Source: a virus | IMG/VR virus record: IMGVR_UViG_3300032291_003679 | Location: 64,001 to 128,000 of that record | Reading direction: 5' to 3' (one strand) | DNA: 64,000 nucleotides | Shown here: in pieces, positions 1 through 58,800 of the stretch | Position numbering within the stretch: the stretch's first letter is position 1 | Layout of the letters: each line of letters opens with the position of its first letter | The notes under the pieces: model-generated | What the model was told of the DNA's origin: nothing | Database searches by the model: none | What the model saw: only the letters and a program-made list of their open reading frames with translations | Made by a program: the position numbers and the translations under genes

Positions 1-3000
1 CGGGCAGTCTGTCTTGCGCTAAAGCCCGAAGACCGATGTCATCGCCTCTAATGACGAATCCTTTTGGAGCTACCATTTCCAACATTGGGAATCTAGCTCT
101 TGCTTCGTCGTTCTCGTACTCTAAAACGGAACCGGAAGTTTCGTTCTTGTATATTTGTCTAGCAACAATATTCCCGTCAGTATCTTTCCATACTGAATCT
201 TGAAAAACAAGCGTATCTTTCATTGCTTCATCAAGTATTGAAATAACGTCATCACGCTTAGGCAACTCGACGGTACGCCAGTCTCGTTTGTCCGGTATCT
301 GTTCTGCCATTTGAGGTATCGGGTCAGCAGAAACAAACGGAATTCCGTCTGAAGAAATGTCAATCGAAATTGATTCAAGCAGTTGTTTTCCGGTTTCAGA
401 AAACGCATCGTCTATTTCAACGTCAAGAAGCGTTTTGCCCGCAATTTCTCTGGTTAAACCTGGAACCTCTCTCTCAATAATTCTTTTTTGTTGGTCGGTT
501 AGTGTTGTTTCGGTTGTTTCTTCTATTTTTTGTATTATTCGTTCAGCAACTTTTTTGCCGGTCAATACTTCCCTGTTGGAACCAGACTCGGCAGCTTCTT
601 GCTGAGTTACTTCTATGGGTTCATTAAATGCTTCAACTACATTTGCGCCAGAAGAGAGTCTTGTACTTTCCCCTTCGTCGTCCAGATATATCTTATCGTC
701 CGAGAATCTTTCATCATTTTTAAGGTCACCAATAGCGCGGTTAATGGCGTCAAGAAGAGACATTCCTTCTTCTTGATACTTGTCCCTTAAGCGCCCGAGC
801 TCTTCTGATTCAAGCTTTTTTAAATCAGCATTAAATGTGCGAAGTTTGTACCGTGAACCATTTTCATCATATACAAGTTTAAATCTTTTATTTTTTTTCT
901 CATTGAAAATTTCAATGTCTTTTATTAATTTTTGCAACGTGTTGCGCGTTGCGGTATACCCGTCTCTTCCTCGTGGCAGATATATAAGTAGGTTATAAAG
1001 TGAGTTATATGCAAGTTCGTCGTCATACACGTCGATGCTTACGTTGGCAGTCAGCTCACCATTTTTATAAATCGGGCTATAAGCATAGCCATGTTTTTCA
1101 ATAGATTCTTGTTTTATTTTTTCTCTGTAATTTTCGTCTTCTTCAAACAGGTTTTGAAGCCTGTTCCATTCTTTGACCATTTCTTCAAAGGTGTCGAACC
1201 GCTTCCCGAAAACGTCTTCGCTGGCTTGCTCAAAAGCTTCCTGGTTGAATCCGTTTTCATCACGGCTCCCAAGGCGTCTGCCGCCATACCCACTATATCC
1301 ATCATGGTATTCATAACGAGCGCGATATTCGCCCATTAGTCCTATGGGCCGTTCTTCTTGATTAAGAATATAATTACGGGCATTGCTTCTTATCTTGTAA
1401 CTAGTTTTTTCATTATCTGAGATGCGGCCAGAAGAGAGATAGTCTTTTATTTCTTGAGGTGTTCTTATTCTGTATTTTTGTCTTCCTCTTTTTTTTGATT
1501 CAAATCTTTCAAAAATTTCAGGAAATTCACCTATGAAGAAGTAGGCATTAGAAAGCGGTATCTCTAGTTCTTGAGACATTATTTTGATGTCTACTTCTCT
1601 GTCTGCATTGTCCTCTGTCCATTGCAGTGTTCTTTCAAATTCGTCTTCGCCGTAGGAAAATGATGCTCTTTTTAGTTTTTTCTTTTTTCGCGCTAAATCA
1701 ACCATTTCGAGTATTGCGTCATACTCTGCTTCTCCAATTCCTCGCGCTCGCGGCATTCGTGTTCCGCGGCGGTTATTTCTCGGAATGGGCCCATATGCTT
1801 CGTCGTAAAGACTGTCGTCGCTCGCAACTCTCCCTGCCATGGCCTCCGGTGAAGGTTTTTTTAGCGGTTCTTTTGTTGGCCTGATTGGTCTAAGACGTCT
1901 TTTGAAAATGTCACCTTGCTCTGTCTCTGTTTCCGCCGATGTTTCGGCATACTCTTGAGGTGTCAAAAAATCAGCTTTATCTTTTTCAAACTTTTCTACA
2001 TCTGTGTTAAATTTATCGTTGTCGGCTTTTAGTTTTGCGTCTCTTTTTTCTTTATCCAAGACGTCAGTAGACCATCTGTTTTCAATGGCTCTATCAATTA
2101 TCTTCTGCATAACCTGACTGGTTGCAAAAGCGTCAGCATCGGCGTTGTGGTGACCCTCACCTAATTCAACATCCAAATACTTAGTTATTGCAGCAAGACT
2201 GCTGGATGGTTTCTTGTTTCCATCTCTATCGGTTGTGTAGGGGCCCTCTGGGCTCTCTTCGCTCCACACGGGCAACGTCATTGCACTTATGTCTCTTGTG
2301 TCAAGATAACCAGAAGGACGCCAATCAATCCCGCTTTCACTCAATGCGTCTTCTAGAACGTTCTTGTCAAACGTGGCATTCTGGACGCCAATGATTGCAT
2401 TTGGCCCAATAAACTCAGCAACTTGCCTATGGGCTTCTGCCATTGGCATCTGCGTAGCGAGCCATTCGTTCGTTATTGGATTGCCGTCTGCGTCCTTAAG
2501 GTTTTTCAAGGACCATTCGCCGAGAGATTCTTCGGGGTTCATGTATAAATTTAAACGACCAATTTCTTTGCCGTTCTTTATTCTTGCTAGACCTATTTGT
2601 ATTGGCTTACCATTGCTTGACGCTTTGCCAAATTCGTCAAAAGTCAGACCAGTTGTTTCGTAGTCAAGGAAGACCATTTCGGTTTCGTTGTATCGCTCTT
2701 TAAATTCTTCCCACGAACTGACGCCATCAAACCTCTTCTCTGCGTCACCAAGGAAAGCACCAAGCGTTGGTTCGCGTGGATATCGTGGGGCCTTACCACT
2801 GCTCAGTGTTTGCCGTGAATCAGTTGCAGAATCCGCATTGTTGTAAAGTTCACGAACCTTCTCGCTAGACATAGCCAGATATGCGTTTTCAGTAAGAATT
2901 AGCTTTTCTGGGTCTATGTCCCTGAAACCCATGCTTTCCCAGTACTCCTTGGAGCCAGGGGTTGATTCAAGGCTTATGCCAGTATTGTCGTCATTTGCTA

Positions 3001-4984
3001 TTTTTAAAATGTCACGGAAAACAGAGCTTCCCAGGTTGTCTATCCCGGATTCTTTTCCATAGCTTGCCATATGGTGGATGAATAGATTGTCGTTATCCCC
3101 TCTTCCGCCTCTTCTAAAACGTGCAGCACCAACAATATTATTGTTTGAATCTCTAGCTACTACTAACGACCTGTCAACTGGGTTTGGTTCGCCAAAAAAA
3201 TCAGAATCACCAAATACTTTGTCCATCTGTATTTTTGCTTCAGCAAATCTTTGAGGAACTTTTCCATCTGGATACTTTTCTTTAGATAGCTTTTTGTATG
3301 AATCATCTGCTTCTTTTTGAAGATTGTAAAAAGATTCTCTGATTTTTTCTACATTGTCGTATATTGCGTCACTGTAAGCATCGACATCAAAATCGCCGTC
3401 ACTATTAAGGAATTCAGGGTCGTCTTCGTCGATTATTGTTTGCTCAACAATGCTGGTAGACACGTTTTCGTCGCGGGTGTTTTTGCCACTAGATAGGCTT
3501 CTTGAACTGTCGCGAGAAGGTAATGCTCCAGCAAGTTCTCTTAATGGTCTTGTATAGAAAAATTGAGCACCAGCATCATGAAACACTTTATCCGCAGTAG
3601 CAAAGTCAACCAATTCTTCTGCTGTTGCTTCTGTTTCAAACAGTCCAGTATCTTCATCTTTGCTATATAAGGAAGATATTTTTTTTCTATCTTCGTCGGA
3701 GAAAAGTTCTGGTGTTTTGGAAATGGTGTCATCAATTAGTTTTATAAACCCTTGTTTATCTTTTTCACCAGCCCATGAGAAGCCGTTTTTCGGCCAGTGA
3801 ACAGCGCCAGTTGAACCGCCACCAGATGCGCCCCATGTAATTATTGAGCGTACGTCAAGCTCTTTGTATATTTGCTCGTTTCGAGCATTGAATGTAGACC
3901 CTATGCCTTGTCCTTGGGCGCGGTTCGTGACGTAGAACGAATCGTGTGACACCATCCGAACGTCTTTGTCGTCCCCCGATATCTGCATAAATGTTCTGTA
4001 CGATGTTGCAAGAGCAGGTGTTCCATCGTCTCTGGAAACGAATCTTCTCTTGTCCTCGTCGTCGAACATGGCGATAAGCCTGTCGTTGTACTCTGGAAGT
4101 GGTTTAATTCTAAAACCAATCTCCAGCTTGGAAAGCAAGTCGCTTTCTTCTAGATTTCTTTCGTACAGTTGTAATTCGTCTTGTTCTGCAAGGTCTTTTT
4201 CAGAAACTTTATCTATTTTTAGAGACGTGGCCCATTCTGGTTGTGGGACTACTTCTATCAAGACCCTTTTACCAATATTTAGCTGCTTCCCATCATCGCC
4301 CGTAATAATTACGTCTTTGTCTAGCGTCATTTCGCCTTCAAATATTTTGGCGAATAAATCACGAACTCGTTGTTTTTCTAGTTTTCTTTCTTCATCGTCT
4401 TGAATTAACTGAACCGGCTTTGGTTCAGGCATCCCTGGTGGTCTCGGCGGTTTTGGTCTGGTGTCGAGCTCGTATACGTCTGCTTTTTGAAATTCTTCTG
4501 CTGAGAGCTCTTCAAAAAAATCATTTATCGATTGTTTTTTGTCTTCGCTTAATGGCGGTTGCGCATCAACTATCTCTTGATATTTTTTCCCAGAAGAAAG
4601 CGCTGAGCTTCGGTCACCCTGTTCGTCGCCGCTTGGTGAAAAAACACTTCCTTCAGAACGACGAGCAGGGCTCGCAGGTTTTCCGCCCTGGCCTTCAATT
4701 CCTACCCAGACCGGCTTTGTAGTGCCTTCGTCGGCCCAACCGTCACCGTCGACATCTCTACGGCTTCCTGTTGGGTTTCTGGTGCCGGGCTTGCCGCCTG
4801 TTGGCAGGTCAAAGCCCCTTCCGCCTCGTCCTCTGCGTCTTTCGCCAATGGTGGGCCTGTTTACTGCCCTGGAACCCAAATAGCGGCCTAGTCGTCCTAG
4901 GGCAGCCTTTTGTTCCGGGCTTGAATTTGCACCGCGACGGGATTCCTCAAAGGGAATGGAGAACTCTTGATTATCTGCAGACAT
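1..4984 (-). CDS. Giant polyvalent/polyprotein, truncated by the window edge (>1660 aa): leader, GNAT, GNAT, DEDDh 3'-5' exonuclease and unknown modules, separated by LSSG
   Basis: Not in the ORF track. I translated it by hand from ATG at 4984 (MSADNQEFSIPF...) to base 2 with no in-frame stop. GNAT motifs: SFYVTNRAQGQGIG...HWPKNGF (~3780-3950) and IVGAARF...LGSSVFRDILKIA...YWESMGF (~2925-3170). DEDDh motifs: VFLDYETTGL, QNATFD, HNADADA (~2130-2680). Confidence 0.9.
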   Translation of the reverse strand, partial: MSADNQEFSIPFEESRRGANSSPEQKAALGRLGRYLGSRAVNRPTIGERRRGRGGRGFDLPTGGKPGTRNPTGSRRDVDGDGWADEGTTKPVWVGIEGQGGKPASPARRSEGSVFSPSGDEQGDRSSALSSGKKYQEIVDAQPPLSEDKKQSINDFFEELSAEEFQKADVYELDTRPKPPRPPGMPEPKPVQLIQDDEERKLEKQRVRDLFAKIFEGEMTLDKDVIITGDDGKQLNIGKRVLIEVVPQPEWATSLKIDKVSEKDLAEQDELQLYERNLEESDLLSKLEIGFRIKPLPEYNDRLIAMFDDEDKRRFVSRDDGTPALATSYRTFMQISGDDKDVRMVSHDSFYVTNRAQGQGIGSTFNARNEQIYKELDVRSIITWGASGGGSTGAVHWPKNGFSWAGEKDKQGFIKLIDDTISKTPELFSDEDRKKISSLYSKDEDTGLFETEATAEELVDFATADKVFHDAGAQFFYTRPLRELAGALPSRDSSRSLSSGKNTRDENVSTSIVEQTIIDEDDPEFLNSDGDFDVDAYSDAIYDNVEKIRESFYNLQKEADDSYKKLSKEKYPDGKVPQRFAEAKIQMDKVFGDSDFFGEPNPVDRSLVVARDSNNNIVGAARFRRGGRGDNDNLFIHHMASYGKESGIDNLGSSVFRDILKIANDDNTGISLESTPGSKEYWESMGFRDIDPEKLILTENAYLAMSSEKVRELYNNADSATDSRQTLSSGKAPRYPREPTLGAFLGDAEKRFDGVSSWEEFKERYNETEMVFLDYETTGLTFDEFGKASSNGKPIQIGLARIKNGKEIGRLNLYMNPEESLGEWSLKNLKDADGNPITNEWLATQMPMAEAHRQVAEFIGPNAIIGVQNATFDKNVLEDALSESGIDWRPSGYLDTRDISAMTLPVWSEESPEGPYTTDRDGNKKPSSSLAAITKYLDVELGEGHHNADADAFATSQVMQKIIDRAIENRWSTDVLDKEKRDAKLKADNDKFNTDVEKFEKDKADFLTPQEYAETSAETETEQGDIFKRRLRPIRPTKEPLKKPSPEAMAGRVASDDSLYDEAYGPIPRNNRRGTRMPRARGIGEAEYDAILEMVDLARKKKKLKRASFSYGEDEFERTLQWTEDNADREVDIKIMSQELEIPLSNAYFFIGEFPEIFERFESKKRGRQKYRIRTPQEIKDYLSSGRISDNEKTSYKIRSNARNYILNQEERPIGLMGEYRARYEYHDGYSGYGGRRLGSRDENGFNQEAFEQASEDVFGKRFDTFEEMVKEWNRLQNLFEEDENYREKIKQESIEKHGYAYSPIYKNGELTANVSIDVYDDELAYNSLYNLLIYLPRGRDGYTATRNTLQKLIKDIEIFNEKKNKRFKLVYDENGSRYKLRTFNADLKKLESEELGRLRDKYQEEGMSLLDAINRAIGDLKNDERFSDDKIYLDDEGESTRLSSGANVVEAFNEPIEVTQQEAAESGSNREVLTGKKVAERIIQKIEETTETTLTDQQKRIIEREVPGLTREIAGKTLLDVEIDDAFSETGKQLLESISIDISSDGIPFVSADPIPQMAEQIPDKRDWRTVELPKRDDVISILDEAMKDTLVFQDSVWKDTDGNIVARQIYKNETSGSVLEYENDEARARFPMLEMVAPKGFVIRGDDIGLRALAQDRLP

Positions 4985-14977: not shown

Positions 14978-16342
14978 TCAGGAAGGTGCGCTGTCGAAGT
15001 CCAGCTTCACGAATGCCTCTGGGCGCTTCACGGCGAGAGCAAGGCGCTGCTCGGCGAGAATCACGATGGCATTACGGATGAAGAAGTCCGAGTGCTGTTC
15101 GCTGATACGGATGCTTGCCTGCTCGCGGTCGTACAACTGAGCGCCGGTACCGAAAGCACCAACAAGAGCTGTACCCTCTGTCATGGCAGGAGTGTCAACG
15201 ATTGGCATTCTCCAAACACGTGGCTCGCCACCCATTGCAACCGAAACTGCGATGAGGTATTGACCCTGCTCGTCCTTGGTGAGCTCGATGTCTTCCCAGT
15301 CATTCGGGTGTAGAACTACACCTGATGGCTCGTAGTAAGCAAGGAATGACAACGTTGCTGCACGACGGATTGCGTCAGCCTTGGTGTCTGCGACAGGTGC
15401 TGAAACACCGTCTGACCATGCGTACTCCTGAATGTTCGGTGTCTGAAGAACGCCGAGCAAGTTTTCGCCAACGCCATTTCCGTTAAGGATTTGGTTATCT
15501 TCGAGAAGACGAAGACCGTACATGAGTTCGTTGTCGATGATTGCACGCAACTGTGGCTCATCTGACAAAACGTTGCGGTGAGCTGCTTCCCAGTGAGCGA
15601 GTGTGCGCACTGGAGCCTGCTCGCCAACGAAGGCAAATGAAGACTGTGGCTTGATACCGAATGCTGTGTTGCCGGAGTTACGCTCTGCAACTGACGATGC
15701 ACTGTTTGTGCCATGGCCAGCCTGCAGGGTTGTGAAACCGAGCTGACGGAAGTATTCAATAACTGCAGCGTTTGTTGTGCGTGTTGGGAACAGGTCACGA
15801 ACGCGCTTTGTACGCATTGGAGGTGTCACCATTGGGTCACGCTGAACGTTGCCAAATGAACCAAGACGGCTGTCTGTAACAGCGGTTGTTGGCAATGCTG
15901 AGTACACATCCTTGACATTGAAGCCATTGTGTGAAGTCAACGAAGCAGCAACCTGCCAAGGAGCAGCCATGTTTGCGCCATTGCGGCCACCGTTGAGTGC
16001 CTTGAACTCTGCTGACTCAAGGAACATCTGACCAATGCTCTTGATTTCACGTGATGTAAGTTGGTTCATGTCTGCAGATGCAGCTGCGTATGCGGCAGCA
16101 GCAGATTCGCCTGCAGGCTGTGAACCCCAGCCATCAACTTGGTTCATGGTCTCAAGGTCGCCGAGAAGGCCCTTGATTTCCTTGATGTCGCGCATGTTCT
16201 TATCGAATGCGCTCTTTTGCTCTGGAGTAACGACTACTGTGCCGTTCTCAACTTTGAATGAATCAGCGATGGTCTTATTGTCTGCCATCTTCTGACGTAG
16301 AGCTCCTTGGAGCTCATCTATACGGGCTTTGTCTTCCGACAT
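14978..16342 (-). CDS. Major capsid protein, HK97 fold
   Basis: Coiled-coil delta-like N-terminus; VRDLFP; VRTLAHW...SDEPQLRAIIDNELMYGL...EDNQILNGNG; F.RN...ILAEQRLALAVKRPEAF; SD GAGGAG. Confidence 0.95.
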   Translation of the reverse strand: MSEDKARIDELQGALRQKMADNKTIADSFKVENGTVVVTPEQKSAFDKNMRDIKEIKGLLGDLETMNQVDGWGSQPAGESAAAAYAAASADMNQLTSREIKSIGQMFLESAEFKALNGGRNGANMAAPWQVAASLTSHNGFNVKDVYSALPTTAVTDSRLGSFGNVQRDPMVTPPMRTKRVRDLFPTRTTNAAVIEYFRQLGFTTLQAGHGTNSASSVAERNSGNTAFGIKPQSSFAFVGEQAPVRTLAHWEAAHRNVLSDEPQLRAIIDNELMYGLRLLEDNQILNGNGVGENLLGVLQTPNIQEYAWSDGVSAPVADTKADAIRRAATLSFLAYYEPSGVVLHPNDWEDIELTKDEQGQYLIAVSVAMGGEPRVWRMPIVDTPAMTEGTALVGAFGTGAQLYDREQASIRISEQHSDFFIRNAIVILAEQRLALAVKRPEAFVKLDFDSAPS

Positions 16343-20498: not shown

Positions 20499-21003
20499 CT
20501 TTTTGCTCCTCTATTTCCCGTAGAAGACTCATTGCTTTCCATGCAAAATCTCGTTCTTCGGCTGTTTTAAACTTGTAAATACTTGTATCCAACTTTACCA
20601 TTCCATCGCAACATGACTTTGTAAGCATTTGCTGTTCAATGTTTTCGGAAATAAATGATTTAACTGCCCTTTTTGTTTTGTCTAGTTTTCTTTTGTTTTT
20701 TCCGAGTGATGAGTTTGTCGGCATTGACTCAAGCATCGAGTCTTTTATCGGCCTTGTTTTAGTTATGAAGGTCTCATACCATGCTCCAGAGGTTGAATCT
20801 TTGGGCGCATCCCATAAAAATCTTTGAAAAGGGGTTGTGCGAAGTTTTCTAAACCCTCTTGTAGTGCTGGATATCTGTATTATGTTGGCCCTGATAGATG
20901 TGCCATCGGGGCGCTCTATTACTGCATCTTTTTCTCCAGGACCAGCCTCAATGTCGTAGTAGACGCGGCTGTCATTGAGTAGACCCACGATTATTGACTT
21001 CAT
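20488..21003 (-). CDS. Hypothetical head-module protein
   Basis: 171-aa ORF overlapping both neighbours. Confidence 0.65.
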   Translation of the reverse strand: MKSIIVGLLNDSRVYYDIEAGPGEKDAVIERPDGTSIRANIIQISSTTRGFRKLRTTPFQRFLWDAPKDSTSGAWYETFITKTRPIKDSMLESMPTNSSLGKNKRKLDKTKRAVKSFISENIEQQMLTKSCCDGMVKLDTSIYKFKTAEERDFAWKAMSLLREIEEQKDVN

Positions 21004-35800: not shown

Positions 35801-38800
35801 AGGCTTGCTGGCCTTTTGATTCGACAAATGCTGGACCTATTTCTTGGATTACGTTTTCAATATCCTGCAACCGCTGCTCTTGGTTGATGTCAGTATCTTC
35901 AACTTCGTAATACTTGTTAGGAAGATTAGAAACATCATCAACGTTGTATACGGTTTGAACAACGTAATAGCGACCCATCTGGATTGCTTGTCCATCAGCG
36001 TTTATTACAGTTCTGCCATCACGTGGCACAAGAATAGAAACGCCGCGAGCACTAGCTCCAGGCTTTAATTTTCCGCCTAGTTTTTCCCATTGCGTTCTGC
36101 CTGCCCATCTGTTTGTTTTGTAGCCGCGACTTTGCGCAGTAAGCAAAAGGGCTAGCTGATTCATGCCCTGGTAAACACGATTTTTAGTTGGGTTACGCGC
36201 AAAGATTTCCGGGTTGCGCCACGGCATCTTCCATTGTTTTGTTTTGTCAGGGTTATCAATTAAGTCTTGCAGGACTTCGATAATCTCCTCGGCCATTCTC
36301 TTGTACATTTCCGCAAGGATTGGAGAGTCTTCTGGTATTTCTGCTTTATCTGGAAGTTTTCCGGATGAAAGTGCAGCACTAATTGGGCCGTCAAATTTTC
36401 TTATCTCGTTGTTGGTTCTCTTGTTTTTTGACTTATTTAGATATTTTGCGTAACCGCTAGAAAGCTTTTGCTCAGGGTCGTCTGGTATTGCTACGAACTC
36501 TGGCTTTCGGCCGCGGGCAAGTTCGAGGTTCTCTCTATCCTGGTCTTGCTGCATGATGGACGTGACAAGGTCCCTATCAGGAGGGATGCGAACGAACCCT
36601 GGCTTTCGGCCGCGGGCAAGCGGAGTGCTTCTGTCGATGACTTCTGGCTTCTCGTCTGGTATCTCTACAAATTCTGGCTTTCGGCCTTGGGAAAGACGCG
36701 TATTTCTATCGAGAACCTGTGGTTGCTTCGGCTTTTTCTTAGGCTTATCTGCCTCCGCTATTTCGTCTTCAGCCATCTTCTCGACACGATTCATATACTT
36801 GTCAAGGTCAGCAATAGCCTTCTTTAGCTTCTTTATCTGGTCAGCGTCAGTAGCGCCGTCCAGCACTCCCTGTAGTTCGTCTCTTTGAGATTCTGCGGCA
36901 CCGTATTTTTCGGCTGAATCAACATCTGGGTCGTCTATTCGCGGAAGGTCTAGCGGGATTTTCCCTGAAGATAGACGCTCGGTCCGAGCAATAGTTTCTG
37001 ATTCTGGCTTAGAAAGCTGACGGGGTGACGGCTTTGGGTTACGAATTGAGCCAGGACCATCTGGAGTTGGGTCCGGAGTAGCAAGTGGGACGCCACGAAG
37101 GAATAGACCTTCACCGACGACTCCGTTGAGGTTTGCGTCACGAGCTGTGAATGGGTCAAAGTCTTCTGCCCCGATTGAGGTAAAGAACCTTCCACGTGAA
37201 CGACCGCCTCCAATGTTAGGACGGTCGATTAGGCGACTGCCGATAGCGCGTCCGAGGCGGTAACCAGCCGCCTTCCACTCTATGTCATTCTCACCTAGAG
37301 ATTTTTTTTTTAGATTATCAACAGCCGTATCGATGGCTTCAATCAGCTCAAAGCTGACACCAGAGGTGATGACGATGCCGTTGACATCCACAAAGGAGTC
37401 GACATTGTGATAGTCAAAGATTGGGTCTAGAGCTTGTTTTACTTGAAAGGCAAACTGAGGCACCACTGGAAGCAAGTATGGCTTCTGGTCGAAATTGTCA
37501 TCTTTTGTTGAGCCAAACTCGCTGAGAAGCTTAAACTTACGACGCTTCTTGCGGCGTCTCCCAACAACTCCACGGAGTGCTGCAACTGCAAGTTCTCCTG
37601 GATACTTTACTTCCAGGTCAGCAATGTAGTCCTCTTCGTTGAATTCTTCGTCAAGTTCATAAGTCTTCTTAGATGCTGTGTCGCCGGTGACTACTCCCTT
37701 GGGAATTACGGCAAATCTGCACTTGCCTTCTGGCTCGACATCCATGGCGATTATCTTGCAAGAATTTCCACCTTGGTAGAAGACGCAGTTTGCGCACTTA
37801 ACGCCAATTGCAGCAACTGGGTTTTCAGCTGCAGGCTTATAGCCAGCCCAAACGCCGTCAGAATCCTCGTTGAAACGACCGTGGCGCTTAACAATCTTAA
37901 GAAGAGCATCTCTTAAGTCTGTTTCTTCTTGGTCGAGATTGTTTTTGTCAAACTCTGGCTGATTTCTTTCATCATCCATGTCTTCGTATTGGACGGGGGG
38001 CAGAGGAACCATACGGTTGCCGTTTTCTCCAGGCTTAATAGCAATTGGCATCGCCGGCATTTGTGATGGGCGAATCACTCTTTGTGGCTCATTTGCAGGG
38101 ACACCAGGTGCCAGCATTGGCATATTCTGCATTGGCGCAACTGGCTTGCGTGCTGGCATCACCACAATCTGCTGTGGTGGACCAAACATGTAGCGTCCGC
38201 GGTTCCCACTAAATCCGCACTTGTAGCGACCGACTTCACCATTGTCCATTCTGCGGGCAAATGTAATTTCGTCGTCGTTTACGTCCATCAGTGAAACTTT
38301 TGCACCAAGGATTGTAGCTAGTTGCTTTTCTATTTCAGCCTTGTCGATGGCGTCTTCGTCGTCTTCCATCATCGCCATCATGACGCCACTGGCGTTGTCG
38401 TCAGACTTAACTGAAATTGTTCCAGTAAGTTGATTTGCTCCATGTAAAACGGGCGAGACCTCGTAAAGTTCAAGTTCGTAAATAACGTTTGCTTGAGACT
38501 TTTGGTCAAACTGGGCCCGAAGGGTCTTGTATCCGATTGACCATTCCTGCTCTTCTCCAAAGAAAGCAACCATGGCAAAAGCTTCCCGACCTTTTTCTGA
38601 ATTAAGGTTGAATTGCACACGGGCGAACAGGCCACCAATGCCAGCCATTTTCATCTTAAGTGGCAAGCGATTGTCCGTATTTGGAACTTCGTAAATCTCT
38701 AGAACTTTACCGATTGGGTCATTCCAGCTATGTCCCCAGACAACTCGTGGCTTACGGCGTTGGAGGCTCTTGGCGAATGCTCCACTTGCAACAATGTCAC

Positions 38801-38939
38801 CAACGGAGTCTTTGTTACCAATACCAGCAACGAAACACTCAACTATGCCCTGAGCCTCATCAAGGTTGATGTTTCCGCCCTTCGAAGAGAGCGAGTTACC
38901 AAGCGAAGTTGACTTGTATTCGAATAGTTCAGATGGCAT
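29877..38939 (-). CDS. 3020-aa fusion: HK97-type prohead protease, scaffold/HiPIP-like region, leader, ArdC-like (ssDNA-binding + metallopeptidase), UvrD/SF1 helicase, unknown C-terminal module
   Basis: Protease GNKDSVGD...VVWGH..NDPIGK...EWSIGY...LYEVSPVLHGAN; ArdC WKMPW...YQGMNQ...HETIHWTSH..RLNR...YAFEELIAEIGS; helicase AGAGTGKTT, DESQD, VGDDRQAVYAFR, SFRYG, LCRTN, SKGRE, VAFSRAK. Confidence 0.9.
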   Translation of the reverse strand: MPSELFEYKSTSLGNSLSSKGGNINLDEAQGIVECFVAGIGNKDSVGDIVASGAFAKSLQRRKPRVVWGHSWNDPIGKVLEIYEVPNTDNRLPLKMKMAGIGGLFARVQFNLNSEKGREAFAMVAFFGEEQEWSIGYKTLRAQFDQKSQANVIYELELYEVSPVLHGANQLTGTISVKSDDNASGVMMAMMEDDEDAIDKAEIEKQLATILGAKVSLMDVNDDEITFARRMDNGEVGRYKCGFSGNRGRYMFGPPQQIVVMPARKPVAPMQNMPMLAPGVPANEPQRVIRPSQMPAMPIAIKPGENGNRMVPLPPVQYEDMDDERNQPEFDKNNLDQEETDLRDALLKIVKRHGRFNEDSDGVWAGYKPAAENPVAAIGVKCANCVFYQGGNSCKIIAMDVEPEGKCRFAVIPKGVVTGDTASKKTYELDEEFNEEDYIADLEVKYPGELAVAALRGVVGRRRKKRRKFKLLSEFGSTKDDNFDQKPYLLPVVPQFAFQVKQALDPIFDYHNVDSFVDVNGIVITSGVSFELIEAIDTAVDNLKKKSLGENDIEWKAAGYRLGRAIGSRLIDRPNIGGGRSRGRFFTSIGAEDFDPFTARDANLNGVVGEGLFLRGVPLATPDPTPDGPGSIRNPKPSPRQLSKPESETIARTERLSSGKIPLDLPRIDDPDVDSAEKYGAAESQRDELQGVLDGATDADQIKKLKKAIADLDKYMNRVEKMAEDEIAEADKPKKKPKQPQVLDRNTRLSQGRKPEFVEIPDEKPEVIDRSTPLARGRKPGFVRIPPDRDLVTSIMQQDQDRENLELARGRKPEFVAIPDDPEQKLSSGYAKYLNKSKNKRTNNEIRKFDGPISAALSSGKLPDKAEIPEDSPILAEMYKRMAEEIIEVLQDLIDNPDKTKQWKMPWRNPEIFARNPTKNRVYQGMNQLALLLTAQSRGYKTNRWAGRTQWEKLGGKLKPGASARGVSILVPRDGRTVINADGQAIQMGRYYVVQTVYNVDDVSNLPNKYYEVEDTDINQEQRLQDIENVIQEIGPAFVESKGQQAFYRPSTDKIHMPAFEQFENALAFYGTAMHETIHWTSHPTRLNRTLGREFGDDQYAFEELIAEIGSAFAMGSMGLEPTVREDHLLYLNSWLKKLRSDPLAIHRAIVQAQQANDYLLNRSATMRRLAGIPDDERKGKEDSWYEVPMLAGYEDIEPIKPTTTIVGPLEDLLDSEAFDDFVPSSPSERELARSLEGLPAKNKDGVVITPSGALASGKQDGPISGTPKGKQKGVADIERIDEKVSLGLAFALKDEPTNEQRDIIAVAMSLIHKRNPAVFSVLAGAGTGKTTTLKSIAWALQREFELWPEGDVRRAEQLAYLSDTYGVDFSKIPADKIEETVADLAKANKTGNIFYTVFNTKNQLEAEVEFPKNTGIATTDKLWQWSLRLGQGDARYGKGMRRKLVMLNKSRDSKKSMRRNPKWKSEEETPDVEKMIGKNFVRETFDGTIETFVGEDPGLEALGWVVLESGEDFVKHLEINKWPNQKKKKKMVTVVDTTGKPVLNEKGKKTKVEVEVDGFELPNGEFVEFSEMGDLLANALRRWGLSKEEKVTAQHFMQPKKAIEDLDTPRGHGKKPGGVDSILPESAIPKLWIDSVQSIVDQISDGDSNVMPSMELIAKLWMLTDPDLRTDPGLITHSSNQTRAKVAIPSSLSEGDTYVADGEEWIVTTISDKAGKTSRATLRKKVATPENPLGAFMVDESQDTNEVLETVLDRNRDKLPIIIVGDDRQAVYAFRDSKNILESLQPEYAQSITESFRYGGVIGHATNLVLGGQNLHLTKQGVPQPVAWKHVKGQAQTVINRQFDPLLPKEDRRGNFPVEELDDATRELLIAKIEKKYSSPTEKLNISSLSRREQDKALKELRDKLYAPKEGRIVDRYEEADKGNLPTMILCRTNAEIINEALKFINIVINSRAVKKDERGMPKLPEVIIPASKWEQLVTFTKHLDFINRTPQQQRDYVARFGKPQASGWLGNVWTTGALQKALSQARYQQARSAYNLIMKPPKNDPTGKALGTKGMLELLQGTVVKGVHEKGKAKGKEKIDIIPAVLIPERKTMELDNWNVGVDQIREIAGRQKSAWKAKSTQREKLFIIPNVDDTFKQAVYAALEIEGGSDKSPGKATGRIIITGDGVDTGRPIDRPDGSQKVNTPPGGRGSNNGRYRRDLEKAIIQLGLQDKIEVMQEAERGFRIEGQAGRRHYDGFVIKGETLEESTEILAQIAQAVRDAAKTGGGDVEITTMQLSKGRESRFVAVAEDMGDPSQNLPSNLAQGEAGIGFMEEGNLVHVAFSRAKEMLDPGNAGFFYYLHDERTKAIRDAMKQAVVDGHIPPELDRGAFGDKDGIPLPDWYKAINAMSLSELENGFPARPTDEKDDEVIVVPVPVDDDGDSEEVEGIITEIDEEDYEFGEDGKPGEDDFVLPEGDDDDEVVDEGDIDDVLGMTLSSGATTDGSRRLTRRSRKISGSNIYGGSLSAQQLAGLRINGDPNSSKNRQALQFAMQAWDGVRKRGIAIDIDDDSLSVPVRQSRTRGAMQNVGKAMKARQERVRIGKISDNNKNENPSAETWMLSIDKLADTIRIPTEFTSRENFNTEDGSTIRWTQSRPATRDEISKMLGLSPANAAKMREPDAGINHDAVRLLIAELGKQKELSAWRYFAPVSANEAKKVVQSPEGDIIEDISQIDLASENAGRANMRDRFIIETFGKDAFPYWFDVEENQSMTPEEYVQLGEVSETSKFRASGRFYPDSATRGDSEAEIDLYGESFDMLLPEEGSIDDSGEIIRDDKTAIEDFDLDSLLDYLGIDRKEWKKGLQERLSSAFGTDSIGINDAWRRKGIPTATIAQMIRNGVLPDAKSVWKESDTGERFDTEMKRPKYAVYEALYEFIDKSFPKLNTRENRNKIIEATDLAYTLEAATQNRGSVWTPSKGNEPRFSGSELQSMVNRFNEMFGTRYTIDDIFSDEQLRTARERVESGNSLWVDKKNSKNPDK
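36480..36720 (-). repeat. Three tandem peptide repeats L(SQ/AR)GRKP(E/G)FVxIP inside the 3020-aa protein
   Basis: The 21-nt string TGGCTTTCGGCCGCGGGCAAG occurs at both 36501-36521 and 36600-36620, with a third degenerate copy near 36675-36695. Confidence 0.85.
37302..37311 (-). promoter_or_regulatory. A10 slippery run (candidate programmed frameshift or transcriptional slippage site)
   Basis: CTA AAA AAA AAA TCT CTA GGT GAG; both alternative frames stop within 4 codons. Confidence 0.5.
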
Positions 38940-39070: not shown

Positions 39071-41176
39071 TTAAACAGTCTGCCCAAAACCCCAAGCCGC
39101 CCTGGTTTCCCGCTCCGCGAAAGAGTCTTGTTGATGAGCGAAAAACTCCGTAAACATCTCTACAAGTCCGTCTCGGAAGAAAGAGAATCTCTTTTCCTCG
39201 TCCGCATACTCAAAAGATTTGAGCATTAGTGAATTTATTTCACTGAAGTGTGACTCGTTAATCTTTTTGATTCTTGCAACATGAGCATCAATCATTGCTC
39301 GAACATCTTTTGCGGGCAGTGCCTTTACTCTGAGGCCCTTCTCCGATGCTTCGTTCACTCGTGACTCAAACGAGTCATTGATAATTGAAGAAATAACCGG
39401 CCTGATGTCTTCATCAAATTGCTTGTTCCATGTGTCTATGGACAGAACCGATTCGATGTCAAGAGTTCCATGCATTAGTGCTTTTTTGGACTTTAGTCCG
39501 CTTGCTTTTTCAAGAACTACCCGCTGCTGGCGCTCCATGACTCTTTCTACTCCGCGTGAGAGAATGTTGGTCCAACGCTCAATCGATTGTTCATTTCTAT
39601 CGACTGATTCTTTTTCTGAATCATCAGACTTTGTCTCAATCTCAGATTCTGGGGATGAAGCGACCGTTGTTGGTGCTGGAGGCATTGCTGTCTGCGGTAT
39701 CCCGCCGAAAGCCTCTGGTGGAACAGTTGTTTGCGCAAGCTGTCCTTCTGCTGCTGTCTCGGCAAGAGCACCAGCCATTGTGTTCGTATCGAGCGGCATG
39801 ACTTCTCCGCCTGGAGGAATAGGTGCTGGGGCACCTGGAGGCATTCCTGGCATACCTGGGGGCATTCCTGGCATTCCTGGCATTCCTGGCATTCCTGGCA
39901 TTCCTGGTGCTCCTGGAATCTGTGTTTGTCCCTCTTCCATCTTCTTTTTGGTATTGGCGATAGGAATGAGGTTTGGATTTTGCAGCAGAGAGTCAGCAAG
40001 GTCTGCTTCTACTTCTTTGCGTGAAGAACCCATTCTGTATTCGTTTGCGCTGATAAGACCAGACTGGAACTCTTGGAGAAGGTATTTGTCTCTCTCTTGC
40101 TTATAAAGCATAAGGATTGGCACTTCGGACGTATCAAAATCTAAATAGAATTTTTCATCAAGTTCGTCAAGGCCACGAGCCAATGGCTCTAGGTGAGGAA
40201 GCATTGTCTCCATCCAGAAAACACGAATTTCTTCAGCTGCGTTACTAAATGTTCTTCCTGCAGCATTTCCGATAACTGATTCCGGGACACCGAAGGATGA
40301 AAGAATTTCTTCTTTTGTTATCTGTCGCATCTGAATATATGCAGCATCACGCGGGTTCGCGGAAGTATCAACAAAATCCACCCCATCGTCTGCTGCAATA
40401 ACCGTCGTATGGCCTGCTTTTGCAAGATTTCCACGGAATCTGCTTCTTAGCTCTTCCTTGTCGTCCTCGTCAATTGCGCCCCTAACGACCAAAAGTCCAC
40501 CAGGGCGGCCATCGTTTAGGAGGTAGTTGCGGTTATAAAGTTTGGCTAGGTTTTCAATTTCAATTGCTACGCCAGCTGCCTCTAGGGGTGTTAGAGACAG
40601 GTATGGGTCAAGTGGATGAGGTCTTCTTATCCAGCAAACATCTTCTGGCTTGAGAATTCTTTTTTCTCCATATGGCATCTGCACTTCATAGCCAGATACA
40701 AAAGTTTTAGGGTCGGGGATTGGGGCTGTTGATTGGGGCGGAAGAAGGTTGAGCGCGATGATGCGACCATCTCGCCCAAATATTTTCTCAATAAATGCGC
40801 CGCGAGTTCCAAGAAGCAACTGGGCAGAAAGCCTGTATCTGAATATAAAGGAGTTTTCTCCAACATTTGCTTTATTATTCAGAAGCTCCAGAAGGGTTGA
40901 GCGATTTGCTTCTCTACCTACAACTATTTCGCCCTTATTTGAGTTGTTTTTTCTGAGAATTATTGGAAGTCGCGCTTGGTTGCCAGCGATTGCATCAATA
41001 CACCTGTTAACCCAGGTGATTTTTGACATTCCTTCACGGTAGGCGCGCTCAATATCCCAAGAGTCACGGTATGCCTTCCCAGCAAGAGATGGGTTAATGG
41101 AGATAGGCGCTCCATACCCAACGTCCTTTCTGGACTGGGAATTTATGTTTTTGTTTTGAGGTGCGTTCCAAGCCAT
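39071..41176 (-). CDS. Portal protein (HK97 family) with a Pro/Gly/Met-rich linker and C-terminal extension
   Basis: WVNRCIDAIA, LSPL-like LTPLEAA, NDGRPGGLL, EILSSFGVPESVIG, TFSNAAE, GLISANEYR. Confidence 0.92.
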   Translation of the reverse strand: MAWNAPQNKNINSQSRKDVGYGAPISINPSLAGKAYRDSWDIERAYREGMSKITWVNRCIDAIAGNQARLPIILRKNNSNKGEIVVGREANRSTLLELLNNKANVGENSFIFRYRLSAQLLLGTRGAFIEKIFGRDGRIIALNLLPPQSTAPIPDPKTFVSGYEVQMPYGEKRILKPEDVCWIRRPHPLDPYLSLTPLEAAGVAIEIENLAKLYNRNYLLNDGRPGGLLVVRGAIDEDDKEELRSRFRGNLAKAGHTTVIAADDGVDFVDTSANPRDAAYIQMRQITKEEILSSFGVPESVIGNAAGRTFSNAAEEIRVFWMETMLPHLEPLARGLDELDEKFYLDFDTSEVPILMLYKQERDKYLLQEFQSGLISANEYRMGSSRKEVEADLADSLLQNPNLIPIANTKKKMEEGQTQIPGAPGMPGMPGMPGMPGMPPGMPGMPPGAPAPIPPGGEVMPLDTNTMAGALAETAAEGQLAQTTVPPEAFGGIPQTAMPPAPTTVASSPESEIETKSDDSEKESVDRNEQSIERWTNILSRGVERVMERQQRVVLEKASGLKSKKALMHGTLDIESVLSIDTWNKQFDEDIRPVISSIINDSFESRVNEASEKGLRVKALPAKDVRAMIDAHVARIKKINESHFSEINSLMLKSFEYADEEKRFSFFRDGLVEMFTEFFAHQQDSFAERETRAAWGFGQTV
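39831..39916 (-). repeat. 9-nt tandem repeat (GGCATTCCT)n encoding (PGM)n in the portal
   Basis: Directly visible tandem copies. Confidence 0.9.
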
Positions 41177-50310: not shown

Positions 50311-50724
50311 CTACCTCTCGGTAATCTTTAACATCTTCTTCTCGTGTAGCCCGAATCCAGAGTCGAGCTCAATAGGGTCGATTATGTCCTCATAAAAGAT
50401 GTGCCCATCCATGCCTGAATCTTCTTTTATTAAGAAGTCCTTTACTGAAGCATGTGGTTCAAAAACAGCAACGTAACGGCCGTTTTCGTCTTTCCCAACA
50501 ATGTCTATATTTGTAGAGGAAAACGCAGCAACTGTTACTCTCCACAGAAAATCGGTGAACTCTTCGAGCTCTTCGCCGTCCATGTCTCCTTGCTCTTCTT
50601 CAAAATAGAAAAACAACACTTCAAGGGCGTTTCTCAGGACATCTACGTTGGCTGCCCTTTTGTCTTCAGGATTAGAAAAAAAGTTTACTAAAATCTGTTC
50701 TTGAATATTGTTTTTTGTTGTCAT
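50311..50724 (-). CDS. Acidic hypothetical protein (paralog A)
   Basis: Aligns by eye with the adjacent 50721-51023 product. Confidence 0.7.
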   Translation of the reverse strand: MTTKNNIQEQILVNFFSNPEDKRAANVDVLRNALEVLFFYFEEEQGDMDGEELEEFTDFLWRVTVAAFSSTNIDIVGKDENGRYVAVFEPHASVKDFLIKEDSGMDGHIFYEDIIDPIELDSGFGLHEKKMLKITER

Positions 50725-54459: not shown

Positions 54460-54475
54460 TCGGAGGAAGTAACCA

Positions 54476-54973
54476 ATGGCAAAAGTAGCGCAGAGACAAG
54501 TACTTGCAACAATAGTTCCAAGCACTTTTACCAATAACGCCAAGCAACAAACCAACGTTCAGGTTAACCTCCCGCGTTGGAACGAGTTCCGCTTCGCGCA
54601 GGTCTCAGGCGGTGAAATCACTGCATCTGTTGAAAAGATTTATGAAGGTGGCAAGTCACGACCAACAGTGTTGTGTGCACCCTCCGAAATCGGCGACATT
54701 ACCCTGACAGCCCACTACGATGACGACATGAATTCAGCGGAAACTGCTGCTGGAATTGGTGCAAAAATCAAGGGCCTCCGCAAGTATGTCGGTACGGCTT
54801 ACTACAACATCACAGTGTCTGTTTACGACTGCGACATCAAGGACCCAACAAACGACCGCGTTTACACAAATGCGCTCTTGGTTGGAATGACGGAGCCAGA
54901 AGGCGACTCGTCTTCGGGTGCTCCTGCAACATTCGCCCTTACATTCGCAATTTCAGACGTCGACGCCCAATAA
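54476..54973 (+). CDS. Tail tube protein
   Basis: Follows the sheath gene; FAQVSGG...YEGG...GDITLT. Confidence 0.8.
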   Translation: MAKVAQRQVLATIVPSTFTNNAKQQTNVQVNLPRWNEFRFAQVSGGEITASVEKIYEGGKSRPTVLCAPSEIGDITLTAHYDDDMNSAETAAGIGAKIKGLRKYVGTAYYNITVSVYDCDIKDPTNDRVYTNALLVGMTEPEGDSSSGAPATFALTFAISDVDAQ

Positions 54974-54979
54974 ATCGCC

Positions 54980-55015
54980 TAGTTGCATTTTTGGCTAGCC
55001 ATAATGTGCTAGTTT
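54980..55015 (+). promoter_or_regulatory. Putative promoter TAGTTGCAT-N21-TAGTTT, leaderless, for the tail chaperone
   Basis: Shared motif; -10-like box 7 nt before ATG 55023. Confidence 0.45.
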
Positions 55016-55022
55016 CTGCACT

Positions 55023-55574
55023 ATGAGCGAAAATGCATTGTACGTAAGCGAAGATTCCGATGACGCAAAGGGTGGCAAAAAGTCACCTCAGCGTGACCTG
55101 ACAGCATCAAGCGTTAAGGAAGAGACACAACTCGACCGCCTACGCTCTATTGTTAAGAAAAAGGTTGAGCGTCCGGTAGTCCACATTCAGGTCCCAGAAC
55201 GCCCTGGTGTTAGCGTCATAATTAGCCCAAACATCACTCAGTCACAGATGAAAAACTGGCGTAAGAATGCTGGCGAAGACTCAAGAAACGGTCTTGACCC
55301 AACAAAGTTTGCTTGCCTTGTTATTGGCCATTCAACTGTTGGTATCTGCATGGATGACGTTGAGATTTTTGACGAAAATGGCAATAATCTTAATTTTGCC
55401 CACCCGCTTATTCTTGAAATGACAGAGACAACACGTCCAGTCCCCGATGCAGTTCGGGCACTTTTCGGTGTTGACCCCCACGTTGAGTCAGCTGCTCTCG
55501 CAATTCTTGATGCGGCCGGATATTCAGATACGGTTGCCGCAGTGGACCCTACGAAGGAGTCTTCGACGAACTAG
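55023..55574 (+). CDS. Tail assembly chaperone (gpG-like)
   Basis: Position between tube and tape measure genes; ends ...VDPTKESSTN. Confidence 0.75.
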   Translation: MSENALYVSEDSDDAKGGKKSPQRDLTASSVKEETQLDRLRSIVKKKVERPVVHIQVPERPGVSVIISPNITQSQMKNWRKNAGEDSRNGLDPTKFACLVIGHSTVGICMDDVEIFDENGNNLNFAHPLILEMTETTRPVPDAVRALFGVDPHVESAALAILDAAGYSDTVAAVDPTKESSTN

Positions 55575-55747: not shown

Positions 55748-55801
55748 TCCATAGCTCGGCAGCCTTACACTCACGTGACTTAAAAATCACTCGGAGTAGG
55801 A

Positions 55802-58800
55802 ATGGCAGACGAAAACGTCGACATTAAGATTAGGTTTGACGCCAAAACGGCGGACCTTAATCGTGCCATCGCAAAACTTGCTGTACTAGAAAAACAAGTA
55901 AAGAAGCTCTCCAGCGGTAGAGAAGAAGCGTTTGCGCGACGAACAACAAACACCCTTAGCAATGTAACCAAGGGCTGGAAGCGTAGTTTTGACTTCATAG
56001 ATGCCGGTGCAAAAATGGCCGGTAAGGGACTCACCAAGTTTCTTGGATTAGCCATAAAGGGTGTAGTCGTAGAAATGGGGCTCCTGGCTGCAGCAATGGT
56101 TGGCGTCCACGCACTGTTTGTCGCTGGCCAATTTATAATGAAGGCGTACCGAGGGGCAATGCAAATGCTGGCGGCAGGCGCAGCTGGTGTAACAGTCGCT
56201 ATGGCTGCTGCGTCTGCAGCAATCCGTGAGCAGCAGGCTGCAATATTTGCCTATAGAGGCAAGGGTGCTCCGGCTTTTGGTTCAGCAATGAACCAGACCC
56301 GCATGGGGATGCGCAACCTTCAAAGCGATGCAAGTTTAGCGACTTTAGGTGTCGAGGCATTAAATAAGGCCTACGGCAATATGTCGAAGTCAATGAATAC
56401 TGCCCAGATAAATAAAAGCGGCGGTGCAATAAAAGCATTGATGGATTTTGGCTCCGCTGGTCAAGACCCTGCAAAAGGACTAGAACAGGTATCGATAGTA
56501 ATAGCATCTTTGTCTGATAAGAAAAAGGGAATTTCAGATGTCATAACAGAGGCCAAAAAGCTTGGCCCAGAGATGGAGCAGGCCCTAAAAAAAGCCAACG
56601 TTAAGACAAAGAAGCAATTTCAAGAATTGCTCATGTCTGGGGAGCTTGCTAAAAGCGGTGGCGTTACGGGCCAGTTTGATGCCGTAAATGGCACCCTAAT
56701 TAGTCAACTAAAAGGATACTTCACTCGCCTGCGTGGTGAGTTTGCAGACTTTGGTGACCAGTTCCTAGAACCGCTAAAGGAAGCTTTCGACCGAGTCTTT
56801 GGAACAATCAGACGTGACTTACAGCGCGTAATGGGCGCTATCATGTTCAGCTTTGGCACCCAGGGTGTTATTGATAATTTTTCAAGTGCTATAGAAAAAG
56901 CATCTAACTGGCTCGTAAAAATGATTCGCGAATATCTGCCTGGAGCTATAGGCATGTTCGACAGAATCGGTGATTGGTTTACTAGATTTAAGCGCGGGTG
57001 GAACCTTGTACTTGACCAAACCAGACCGCTCATAGACGGTGCTCGCGTTCTTTACAAAGCATTTGAGCCAGTTTGGGACGCGCTGAAGCGTGGGGCAGAC
57101 AACTTAACCCTGTTTCGCGAACTGCTTATACAAAACCAAGACAATGTTCAAGAATTTGGTGAACGTATTGGGAAACTGATTGATTCACTTTCTAAGTTCT
57201 TCATGAACATGAAGAAAATGTTTATGGATATGCTTCCGTTCCTTAACGACCTTGTCTCTGGCCTGACGACAGTGTTTGACATGATTTCCAAGATATTTAC
57301 TTCCGGCGCAGGCAAAGGTCTAGCTGGAGCGCTTGCCCCTCTTATGGGGTTTTCTATTTTGGGAAGAGCTCTTTCTGGAGTAAAGGGACGCCTAATGCCG
57401 AACGTTGGCGCAATGTCCGCACAGCAAATGAATGTAACGGCAAACAACGTTTCTATCGCCAACCCAGTTGGTCCAGTGGCGGGGTCGCGAACAATGTTTG
57501 GCGGTGGACCACTTTTTTCTGGGGCACCTGGCAGCTATCCGTCTGGACCATCTGGGACACCTGGAGCAACATCATCTGCAGGAACAGCAACAGCAGCAGG
57601 TAGTGCAGCGCTTGCTGCTCTCTCGTCGGGCAAAACTTCTGGTGGAAACTTTTTAAAGATGCCAAGCGGAGGAGCAGTAAGCAAACTTGCAGACAATCCA
57701 CGCAACACACTTAGATACAACATGCTCACTGGAAGCAGGATGACGGTTCGCGGGAGCGATATAAATCAACGAGAAAAAGAACGGTTTACTCAACGCCAAC
57801 AATTGGGACGTGGCCTTGGCTATTACATGTTCGGTCAAGCTTCTAACCCATACGCGAAAATGGAAGGAGATGCAGCAGCTCGTGCCTCCGCCCGCTTTGA
57901 GGCAACACAGGGGCTGCAGAGCCTGTCTATGGACGAGCTACATAAAGTAGCGGTAGATAAACATGGAATTACTGGGTTGACCGATAAGACATCACGTACA
58001 GACGTAATTGCACGAATACAAGGTTCTGCTGGGTATAAAGATGAAGATTACGCCGGAATGAGGAAGGTAGGACTCGGAGAGGCGATTAAAAACACGAGAG
58101 GAAGAATGCGCTTTGCCGCTACGGGGGTAATGGATAGGGCACAGTATGCAGGAAGACGTGTTTCTGGGGCATACCAAGGAGCCATGGCTTACTTTAATTC
58201 TGGTGCATTTAATCCTGAAACAGGTGAATATTACGACCTTAAAGATGCTCGTGACAAAATAGATGAGCGGTTCCAGAAAACCAAAGATGAAGCTGGTGGC
58301 AGTAAAAGAAAACTTCTTAGAGGAAGAATAGATAGGGCAAGAGATTCAAACAGGCTTAACAGAACGTATGGAAAATTTGGCAACGCATACAATGTGAAGT
58401 TTGCTAAAAGCGCCAGCGGACGTATGGGTGCAGGCATGGGTCTTGGTCTAATGAGCCAAGTCGCTCCAGAAGAAATGCGTGGAGCAATGGCGCTGGGTGC
58501 AACTGTTGGACAAATCGACCCACGTTTGGGAATTGCTGTTGCCGGAATAGGCGGAGCCATGAAGGCTCAGGGAGCAATGAAGGGTGCCCTCTCTGGCGCT
58601 GCTGGTGGAGCTGCTTTAGGCGGAATGCTTGGACCGCATGGAGCAGCAATCGGTGCCGGAATCGGTCTTGTTGTTGGCGGCATTATGGGTGCCGTTAATA
58701 AGGGAAAACAGCAGCTAAAAGAAGCCAGGGAAACTGTACACAAGAGTCTTGGCGAGTTTTACATGGCTAGCCTGAAGTCGTCAGGCGAACAGTTTGAAAA

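Follow-up and report, generated by a model that had tools for sequence, protein, structure and literature searches.

Phage polyvalent proteins were predicted by Iyer, Burroughs, Anand, de Souza and Aravind (2017; PMC5512222) to be cut into functional units, with no site defined and with the embedded MPTase alone named as the protease. Site-specific trimming of ejection proteins by a prohead protease is described for T4, whose gp21 processes IPI-III and Alt at I/L-x-E (PMC12991175), and the SPN3US prohead protease removes N-terminal propeptides of 20-254 residues, some of them of 111-254 (PMC10052503). Here we analyse a tetrapeptide, LSSG, that recurs in giant proteins of an uncultured myovirus, in a 64,000-nucleotide stretch (the window; positions 64001-128000 of the 158,021 bp genome in IMG/VR record IMGVR_UViG_3300032291_003679). 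The motif probably, at roughly three chances in four, marks sites for proteolysis by a lineage-specific protease that the phage encodes. Processing of polyvalent proteins into units was, as a general idea, already proposed by Iyer et al.; new here are the replacement of LSSG by other peptides in sister lineages, a tape measure protein that bears its own lineage's peptide, and a shared leader of ~100-130 residues that in two polyproteins precedes the first site. Searching the literature for LSSG together with phage gave no relevant paper and no published description.

Like the polyvalent proteins of Iyer et al., those encoded here are giant late-gene chains joining ArdC-N, MPTase zincin, helicase, acetyltransferase and nuclease domains, with S78, ArdC-N, MPTase and UvrD helicase in one chain and GNAT and DEDDh in another; unlike them, they combine a lineage-changing peptide, a shared leader, a prohead-protease fusion and, in some relatives, zincin-free fusions with 9-11 junctions. 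A head-module protease and a short, here putative, site are shared with the systems of T4, phiKZ (gp175) and SPN3US (gp245), and the leader-then-site layout resembles the N-terminal propeptides that are removed there from proteins travelling with the DNA. In contrast to T4 and phiKZ, however, many sites per chain separate unrelated enzymes, one polyprotein is fused to the protease, the protease is an HK97-type S78 enzyme, the capsid protein lacks the exact motif, and the motif is also found on the tape measure protein. As in ArdC of plasmid R388 (PDB 6i89; PMC7213743), ArdC-N is followed by an HExxH metallopeptidase, but the plasmid protein stands alone whereas here the pair forms a cassette between two junction peptides in a 3020-residue chain. 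With the polyproteins of eukaryotic RNA viruses the likeness (one chain, many units, a short junction peptide varying between related lineages) is an analogy only, since here the chains belong to a double-stranded DNA phage, the units are accessory virion cargo and not replication proteins, and the cutting is putative.

The 16 exact copies of LSSG in the window all lie at the coordinates given in the preliminary description, in frame in the four proteins to which it had assigned them:

2..4984 (-): left giant polyprotein, an open reading frame (ORF) of which the window holds the first 1661 of 3479 residues and which ends at genome position 58545
21000..28175 (-): 2391-residue head-module protein, an ORF
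29877..38939 (-): 3020-residue fusion, from Pfam and PHROG matches and the module map in relatives
55802..60607 (+): tape measure protein, 1601 residues, from its placement after sheath, tube and chaperone genes and from homologues

In the window proteome (~20,700 residues) LSSG outnumbers every other tetrapeptide, with 16 copies against 0.59 expected. Over 300 per-protein shuffles, a control that the preliminary description had suggested, the highest count was 3 for LSSG and 7 for any tetrapeptide. The whole genome has 22 copies, which all fall within these four proteins (10,491 residues), with none in the other ~39,000 residues. Six-frame translation of the window yields six further LSSG strings, five of them out of frame with the local gene and the sixth (50660-50671) beneath a minus-strand gene, where the plus strand has no ORF of at least 40 residues. 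K or R follows 11 of the 16 copies, and the variants reported together with them, LASG (35166-35177), LSQG (36684-36695) and LARG (36609-36620 and 36510-36521), are present too. The 22 sites between them draw on every one of the six Leu and four Gly codons and on both Ser boxes, which upholds the claim of conservation at the protein level: selection therefore acts on the peptide and not on the DNA. A DNA-level repeat or recombination site was considered and is ruled out by these varying codons. The flanks of the sites are poor in hydrophobic residues (0.21 versus a background of 0.28; Mann-Whitney p ~1e-7, with an autocorrelated background). The peptide is a real, protein-level feature confined to giant multi-module proteins and the tape measure protein.

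Relatives were gathered from IMG/VR with a portal search, which gave 270 related stretches, and an S78 domain search, which gave at least 585 contigs. In the ORFs that follow their portal genes, LSSG again ranks first among tetrapeptides, single proteins having as many as 14 copies, and giant ORFs contain 317 copies in 149,615 residues versus 23 in 209,517 residues of other ORFs. The clade logo is [RSK]-[LF]-S-S-G-[RKA] (LSSG 280, LASG 15, LGSG 10, LSST 7), and in the complete relatives G001 and G003 the motif is found in homologues of the same three giant proteins. The ArdC-MPTase module is flanked by sites in nearly every arrangement, even when moved to the C-terminus, and some relatives have the gene divided immediately ahead of the leader bearing the first site, so that protease and cargo are separate genes. 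Enrichment over background and conservation at the junctions of homologues, on which the preliminary description had staked its case, were thus both found. When a profile was used to look for S78 relatives further afield, every match belonged to this clade.

The placement of the sites is clearest in the fusion, which runs from the S78 prohead protease through a Cys-rich middle, the leader, short modules, ArdC and a superfamily 1 (SF1) helicase to a C-terminal module:

38373..38864 (-): S78 (HK97-type) prohead protease, residues 26-189 (PF04586, 44.1 bits against a cut-off of 21; PHROG 80, E = 4.6e-27)
36975..37334 (-): second leader copy, residues 536-655, upstream of the fusion's first LSSG; it starts the cargo ORF in the split relative L058
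36963..36974 (-): LSSG, residue 656, in the same column in 10 of 14 homologues; predicted local distance difference test (pLDDT) <50
36510..36695 (-): three repeats of ~25-33 residues with LSQG, LARG and LARG, each followed by RKP; pLDDT <50
36453..36464 (-): LSSG, residue 826, in the same column in 6 of 14 homologues
36360..36371 (-): LSSG, residue 857, directly before ArdC, in the same column in 13 of 14 homologues, with S-S-G invariant in 20 diverse sequences
35178..36359 (-): complete ArdC (ArdC-N plus MPTase, HETIH), residues 861-1254 (PF08401, PF18818)
35166..35177 (-): LASG variant, residue 1255, between ArdC and helicase; LSSG in 8 of 14 homologues; pLDDT <50
31509..35165 (-): SF1/UvrD-type helicase, residues 1259-2477 (PF00580, PF13245, PHROG 1967)
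31497..31508 (-): LSSG, residue 2478, between helicase and C-terminal module, in the same column in 13 of 14 homologues

The sites at residues 656, 826, 857, 1255 and 2478 share alignment columns with those of homologues (n = 14). The ArdC unit matches PF08401 (ArdC-N, E = 7.7e-17) and PF18818 (MPTase-PolyVal, residues 1027-1149, E = 3.9e-40), and its structural model matches PDB 6i89 in Foldseek (E = 1.6e-15, TM score 0.78 over the target, 29% identity), so that residues 861-1254 are predicted to have the ArdC fold and domain order. The bracketed unit matches the whole of the free-standing plasmid ArdC.

When the sites were overlaid on domain boundaries in an AlphaFold2 model of residues 640-1300, six of the eight sites or variants had pLDDT <50 and lay at the edges of confident domains; those at 656, 749, 774, 807 and 1255 are in such low-confidence stretches between confident domains, and that at 857 is in coil at the ArdC-N edge with pLDDT ~80. 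The model of residues 1-700 (S78, middle and leader) was poor, with a mean pLDDT of 49.7 and low confidence around 656. The proposal that the sites sit in linkers at domain boundaries is hence supported by the polar flanks, the low pLDDT and the bracketed ArdC, but its 'ParB module' was not confirmed: searches of Pfam (E up to 1), PDB sequences and the Atlas brought no match for residues 1450-2017 of the 2391-residue protein, nor for the other unassigned modules.

The three repeats between sites 656 and 826 follow the pattern D-R-x-T-x-L-[SA]-[QR]-G-R-K-P-x-F-V-x-I-P and carry degenerate junction peptides. Between S78 and the leader lies a near-invariant cluster of four Cys residues, C382, C385, C394 and C407 (window 37719-37796 (-)), in a region with a weak Pfam HiPIP match (E = 0.2), which may be a metal-binding knuckle.

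The left polyprotein is built in the same manner, in the order leader, GNAT, GNAT, DEDDh exonuclease and unassigned modules, with 11 LSSG sites in total, of which the window holds the following:

4601..4984 (-): N-terminal leader, residues 1-128, ending at the first LSSG; candidate targeting propeptide
4589..4600 (-): LSSG, residue 129, at the leader end, a position kept in G001 (108) and G003 (125)
3485..3496 (-): LSSG, residue 497, between the two GNAT regions
2795..2806 (-): LSSG, residue 727, between the second GNAT and the DEDDh exonuclease
1427..1438 (-): LSSG, residue 1183, past the exonuclease module
647..658 (-): LSSG, residue 1443

Pfam RNase_T is matched at residues 771-958, with weak GNAT matches and PHROG 192, and residues 1662-3479 have no Pfam family. 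Residues 1-128 share homology with residues 536-660 of the fusion, each stretch ending at the first LSSG, and with the starts of cargo ORFs in relatives. Among 1.84 billion cluster representatives, a profile of the leader matched 53 clusters (50% identity) of mostly giant proteins (2,000-6,526 residues), which have the leader either N-terminally or around residues 520-660 and usually have their first site at residues 93-141; proteins that only the leader profile found contain 341 [LF]SSG in 123,027 residues. We infer a targeting role for this leader. With a complete ArdC between two sites, genes split before the leader, and the leader directly before the first site, the arrangement fits the reading of these chains as polyproteins. 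The leader itself reads ...G-S-R-L-I-D-R-P-x-I-G-G-x-R ... D-x-D-G ... and then [LF]SSG, in exactly two copies per genome; the near identity of the two copies in G001 suggests concerted evolution.

In the 2391-residue protein, a site-free N-terminal unit of 1303 residues precedes five LSSG sites and C-terminal modules:

26355..26369 (-): HEIAH, residues 603-607, candidate zinc-protease active site, with HExxH invariant in 11 homologues
24234..24266 (-): two LSSG sites (24255-24266 and 24234-24245), residues 1304 and 1311, with equivalents at 1302 in G001 and 1300 in G003
23949..23960 (-): LSSG, residue 1406
23829..23840 (-): LSSG, residue 1446, at 1437 in G001 and 1447 in G003
22113..22124 (-): LSSG, residue 2018

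The protein had no Pfam, PHROG or PDB sequence match, and hence no family that names the N-terminal unit a peptidase. The HExxH together with a downstream G-x-Y ... E-x-x-A-E is invariant, all the same, in the 11 homologues, which belong to four lineages and are 15-45% identical (alignment A5 positions H154, E155, H158, G237, Y239, E254, A257 and E258), and those of other lineages have only 15-27% identity to the window's sequence. The unit, present in every genome examined, is therefore a candidate gluzincin-type metallopeptidase on the pattern of its invariant residues. HExxH is found in each of the three giant proteins.

The remaining protein with the motif lies on the plus strand, where PHROG matches to sheath, tube and chaperone (53002-55574) are followed by the 1601-residue ORF, which had no specific family match and Gly-zipper matches only:

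55907..55918 (+): LSSG, residue 36; LSSG, LASG or FASG is at 36 in 22 of 31 unique homologues
57620..57631 (+): LSSG, residue 607, in a variable low-complexity region; a mid-protein [LF]SSG is found in 22 of 31 homologues

LSSG is not a general code but one of at least four lineage-specific peptides, distinct among phages whose capsid proteins are 71-76% identical. G010 has ~16 copies of (D/E)-G-F-A-S-R in a 4898-residue S78 fusion, G009 has G-L-A-S-[TRS], G011 R-G-M-A-S-R and G012 G-F-A-S; G007 and G008 have I-S-G-R-M-G and G006 has (I/V)-T-G-A-M-S, while no repeated peptide was found in G013 and G014. What holds of the original polyprotein claim is a real, protein-level motif at conserved module junctions. 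Four of the five sister-genome tape measure proteins checked carry their own lineage's peptide: E-G-L-A-S-R-G at 49 and G-F-A-S at 631 in G010, G-L-A-S at 22, 581 and 590 in G009, G-R-M-G at residue 6 in G008, and T-G-A-M at 47 and I-T-G-A-M-S at 854 in G006; that of G011 has no clear N-terminal site. One peptide per genome, common to head cargo and tape measure protein and swapped as a set, points to a specific, co-evolving reader. A chemical self-cleaving peptide is ruled out by the differences between lineages. In G007 and G008 (L297:569-2926 and L296:756-3125) the S78 protein is unfused and carries one N-P-x-S-G-R-M-G-G-L at ~residue 325, between the protease domain and the C-terminal part, which could be a self-processing site.

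In the mechanism that we propose, cargo polyproteins, one fused to S78 and another with the same ~100-130-residue N-terminal leader, would enter the procapsid, where the protease would cut each junction, removing the leader and freeing ArdC, the SF1 helicase, the acetyltransferases and the DEDDh exonuclease, and the freed units would leave with the DNA at ejection. As the reader we tentatively, and on analysis of the domains and boundaries only slightly, favour S78 over the gluzincin, at somewhat less than even odds. The head module encodes an intact prohead protease, with H70, S134 and H166 invariant in 20-40 homologues. In favour of S78 are its fusion to the head of one polyprotein, the invariance of these three residues, a leader-then-site layout like that of known prohead-protease substrates, the L-[ST]-S at the capsid boundary, and R141, Q143 and Y154, just past the catalytic Ser, which are diagnostic of the LSSG lineage. 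Its specificity would place Leu or Phe at P3 and a small residue at each of P2 and P1 (L-S-S before G), a pattern proposed by analogy with T4 gp21 (I/L-x-E) and the phiKZ and SPN3US proteases; assemblin-fold proteases favour a hydrophobic P3 and a small or fixed P1. Predicting a complex between the S78 domain and linker 840-880 lent no support, a result that weighs neither way.

The major capsid protein is a certain substrate of a prohead protease, and its boundary can be compared with the junctions:

14978..16342 (-): HK97-fold major capsid protein (Pfam Phage_capsid, E = 3.3e-41) with a ~97-residue N-terminal delta-like domain
16049..16060 (-): L-T-S-R, residues 95-98, at the junction of a variable Ala-rich linker and the conserved N-arm

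In most relatives this boundary reads QLSSRE; of 58 unique capsid proteins from the clade, 44 have L-[ST]-S-[RHS], and LSSG is not used by those clade members whose delta-domain boundary lacks L-[ST]-S.

Several observations weigh against a proteolytic signal read by S78. Cleavage, head packaging and ejection are all steps that we infer. The capsid boundary is never LSSG (LTSR here, LSSR mostly), and the Gly that is invariant at all 320 cargo sites tallied is absent from it. When position-specific scoring matrices of the lineage junctions were run on every lineage's capsid boundaries, they did not favour those of their own lineage (not significant), and we therefore claim no covariation between capsid boundary and junction peptide. 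Of the 106 S78 columns that never vary within the LSSG lineage, only 1-3 are changed in the G-[FLM]-A-S lineage; at the positions diagnostic of LSSG, lineages B, C and D have the same residues as one another despite their differing peptides; and, in a small sample, Phe-dominant phages could not be told from Leu-only ones by any column of S78 or ArdC-MPTase. Lastly, the tape measure protein is a tail protein and should be beyond the reach of a prohead-confined protease, yet its sites are conserved and lineage-matched. This last objection is weakened by the report that T4 gp21 cuts a cytosolic protein outside proheads (PMC12991175).

These same difficulties favour a second possible reader, which we hold to be a serious but lesser candidate: the gluzincin of the 2391-residue protein (HEIAH, residue 603) might cut the junctions in trans, possibly only once polyproteins, zincin and tape measure protein have been ejected into the next host, with Leu/Phe as P1', a choice usual for zincins. 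Its motifs, invariant across four divergent lineages and in every genome examined, indicate a real enzyme, and its strong divergence suits a changing specificity better than the near-unchanged S78 does. All four proteins with the motif are plausibly ejected, so that cutting after ejection would cover the tape measure sites, and a capsid protein without the exact motif would be expected. Iyer et al. (PMC5512222) also suggested that a zincin processes polyvalent proteins, either prior to packaging or once they are injected. Set against this are the lack of a Pfam, PHROG or PDB sequence match as a peptidase, the use of G-F-A-S-R by G010 although it shares the window's HEIAH, and the retention of the zincin in G013 and G014 despite no repeated peptide there; L-S-S at the capsid boundary would, moreover, have to be a coincidence. 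Self-processing by a zincin within each chain is a separate matter and is ruled out for the S78 fusions of G009, G011 and G012, which have 9-11 junctions and no HExxH.

It seems unlikely that the peptide stays uncut and serves for docking, binding a partner particular to each lineage (for example a chaperone, the portal or tail channel, or the inside of the capsid) so that long unfolded chains are loaded, or are ejected in order. Repeats in disordered linkers can give avidity, tape measure protein and head cargo share an exit route and could conceivably share a channel-related partner, and HK97-fold shells do bind short targeting peptides, among them encapsulin cargo peptides and the HK97 protease tail. 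Docking gives no reason, however, for placement at module boundaries, for the bracketing of a complete ArdC, for sites directly following the leader, or for sites 6-49 residues from the tape measure N-terminus, which resemble propeptide removal, and it leaves the gene splits beside leader and first site unexplained. Least probable is cutting by a host protease, with different peptides for different hosts, for although Staphylococcus phage 80alpha uses the host protease Prp, a host enzyme would reach head and tail proteins alike, and the short tape measure propeptides resemble Prp-type processing, at least four peptides among phages with 71-76% identical capsids would need a matching series of host proteases, and each genome already has two conserved head-module proteases.

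Returning to a signal cut by a phage-encoded protease, one may go further, in a scheme that we consider rather doubtful, and see a private protease-junction code that changes with the lineage, cassette modules that carry the lineage peptide, and a single reader that also cuts the tape measure protein, suggesting cutting after ejection in the newly infected cell; this would be a bacterial-virus counterpart of polyprotein processing that deploys anti-defence enzymes. The clade in any case gives a rule readable from sequence, consisting of a junction peptide of 4-6 residues, a shared leader and two conserved candidate proteases, for which sister lineages with different peptides are natural controls. 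The rule predicts the mature ends of dozens of unassigned modules, and thus domain boundaries for structural and functional work, and explains how modules could pass between phages. If cleavage is true, the system could serve to load chosen proteins into phage particles and release them from these, and the tape measure sites raise the question of where and when phage maturation proteases act.

In the genome, the minus strand encodes the portal, the S78 protease fusion, an acidic 523-residue protein, the 2391-residue protein and the HK97-fold capsid protein, and the plus strand the terminase, sheath, tube, tail chaperone and tape measure protein, so that the effector domains of the giant proteins adjoin portal, capsid and tail genes:

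39071..41176 (-): portal protein (PF04860, E = 1.5e-49), directly upstream of the S78 fusion

The 523-residue protein (window 28190-29761 (-)), between the S78 fusion and the 2391-residue protein, is very acidic and its C-terminal part is kept at 43-68% identity in most sister genomes examined; a search for a family match found none, and it is a candidate for a scaffold or an internal protein of the head. A Toprim/AAA_25 primase-helicase (window 5995-7839 (-)) and a class II-like ribonucleotide reductase (window 10250-12175 (+)) separate the left polyprotein from the head module, and the left polyprotein is therefore outside the structural gene block. The portal of the relative L078 (L078:110-2155) has one LSSG in a C-terminal extension, at ~residue 555, as seen in three related contigs, and the window's own portal has LSRG near the equivalent place, by chance or as a real site. 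The Gordonia Chidiebere/GMA6 group, closest among cultured phages in capsid and protease genes (~42-47% identity), was considered as a relative and is without the junction motif. One annotated tail protein, Chidiebere gp29 (L104:17697-19352), has 6-7 copies of R-L-T-D-A-R-T-P-T-A-H, which is a single-protein internal repeat and not a junction code. Outside the window, the genome has collagen-like repeats of G-A-T-G (78 copies) and G-P-T-G (35), also found in G003 and presumably in fibre proteins.

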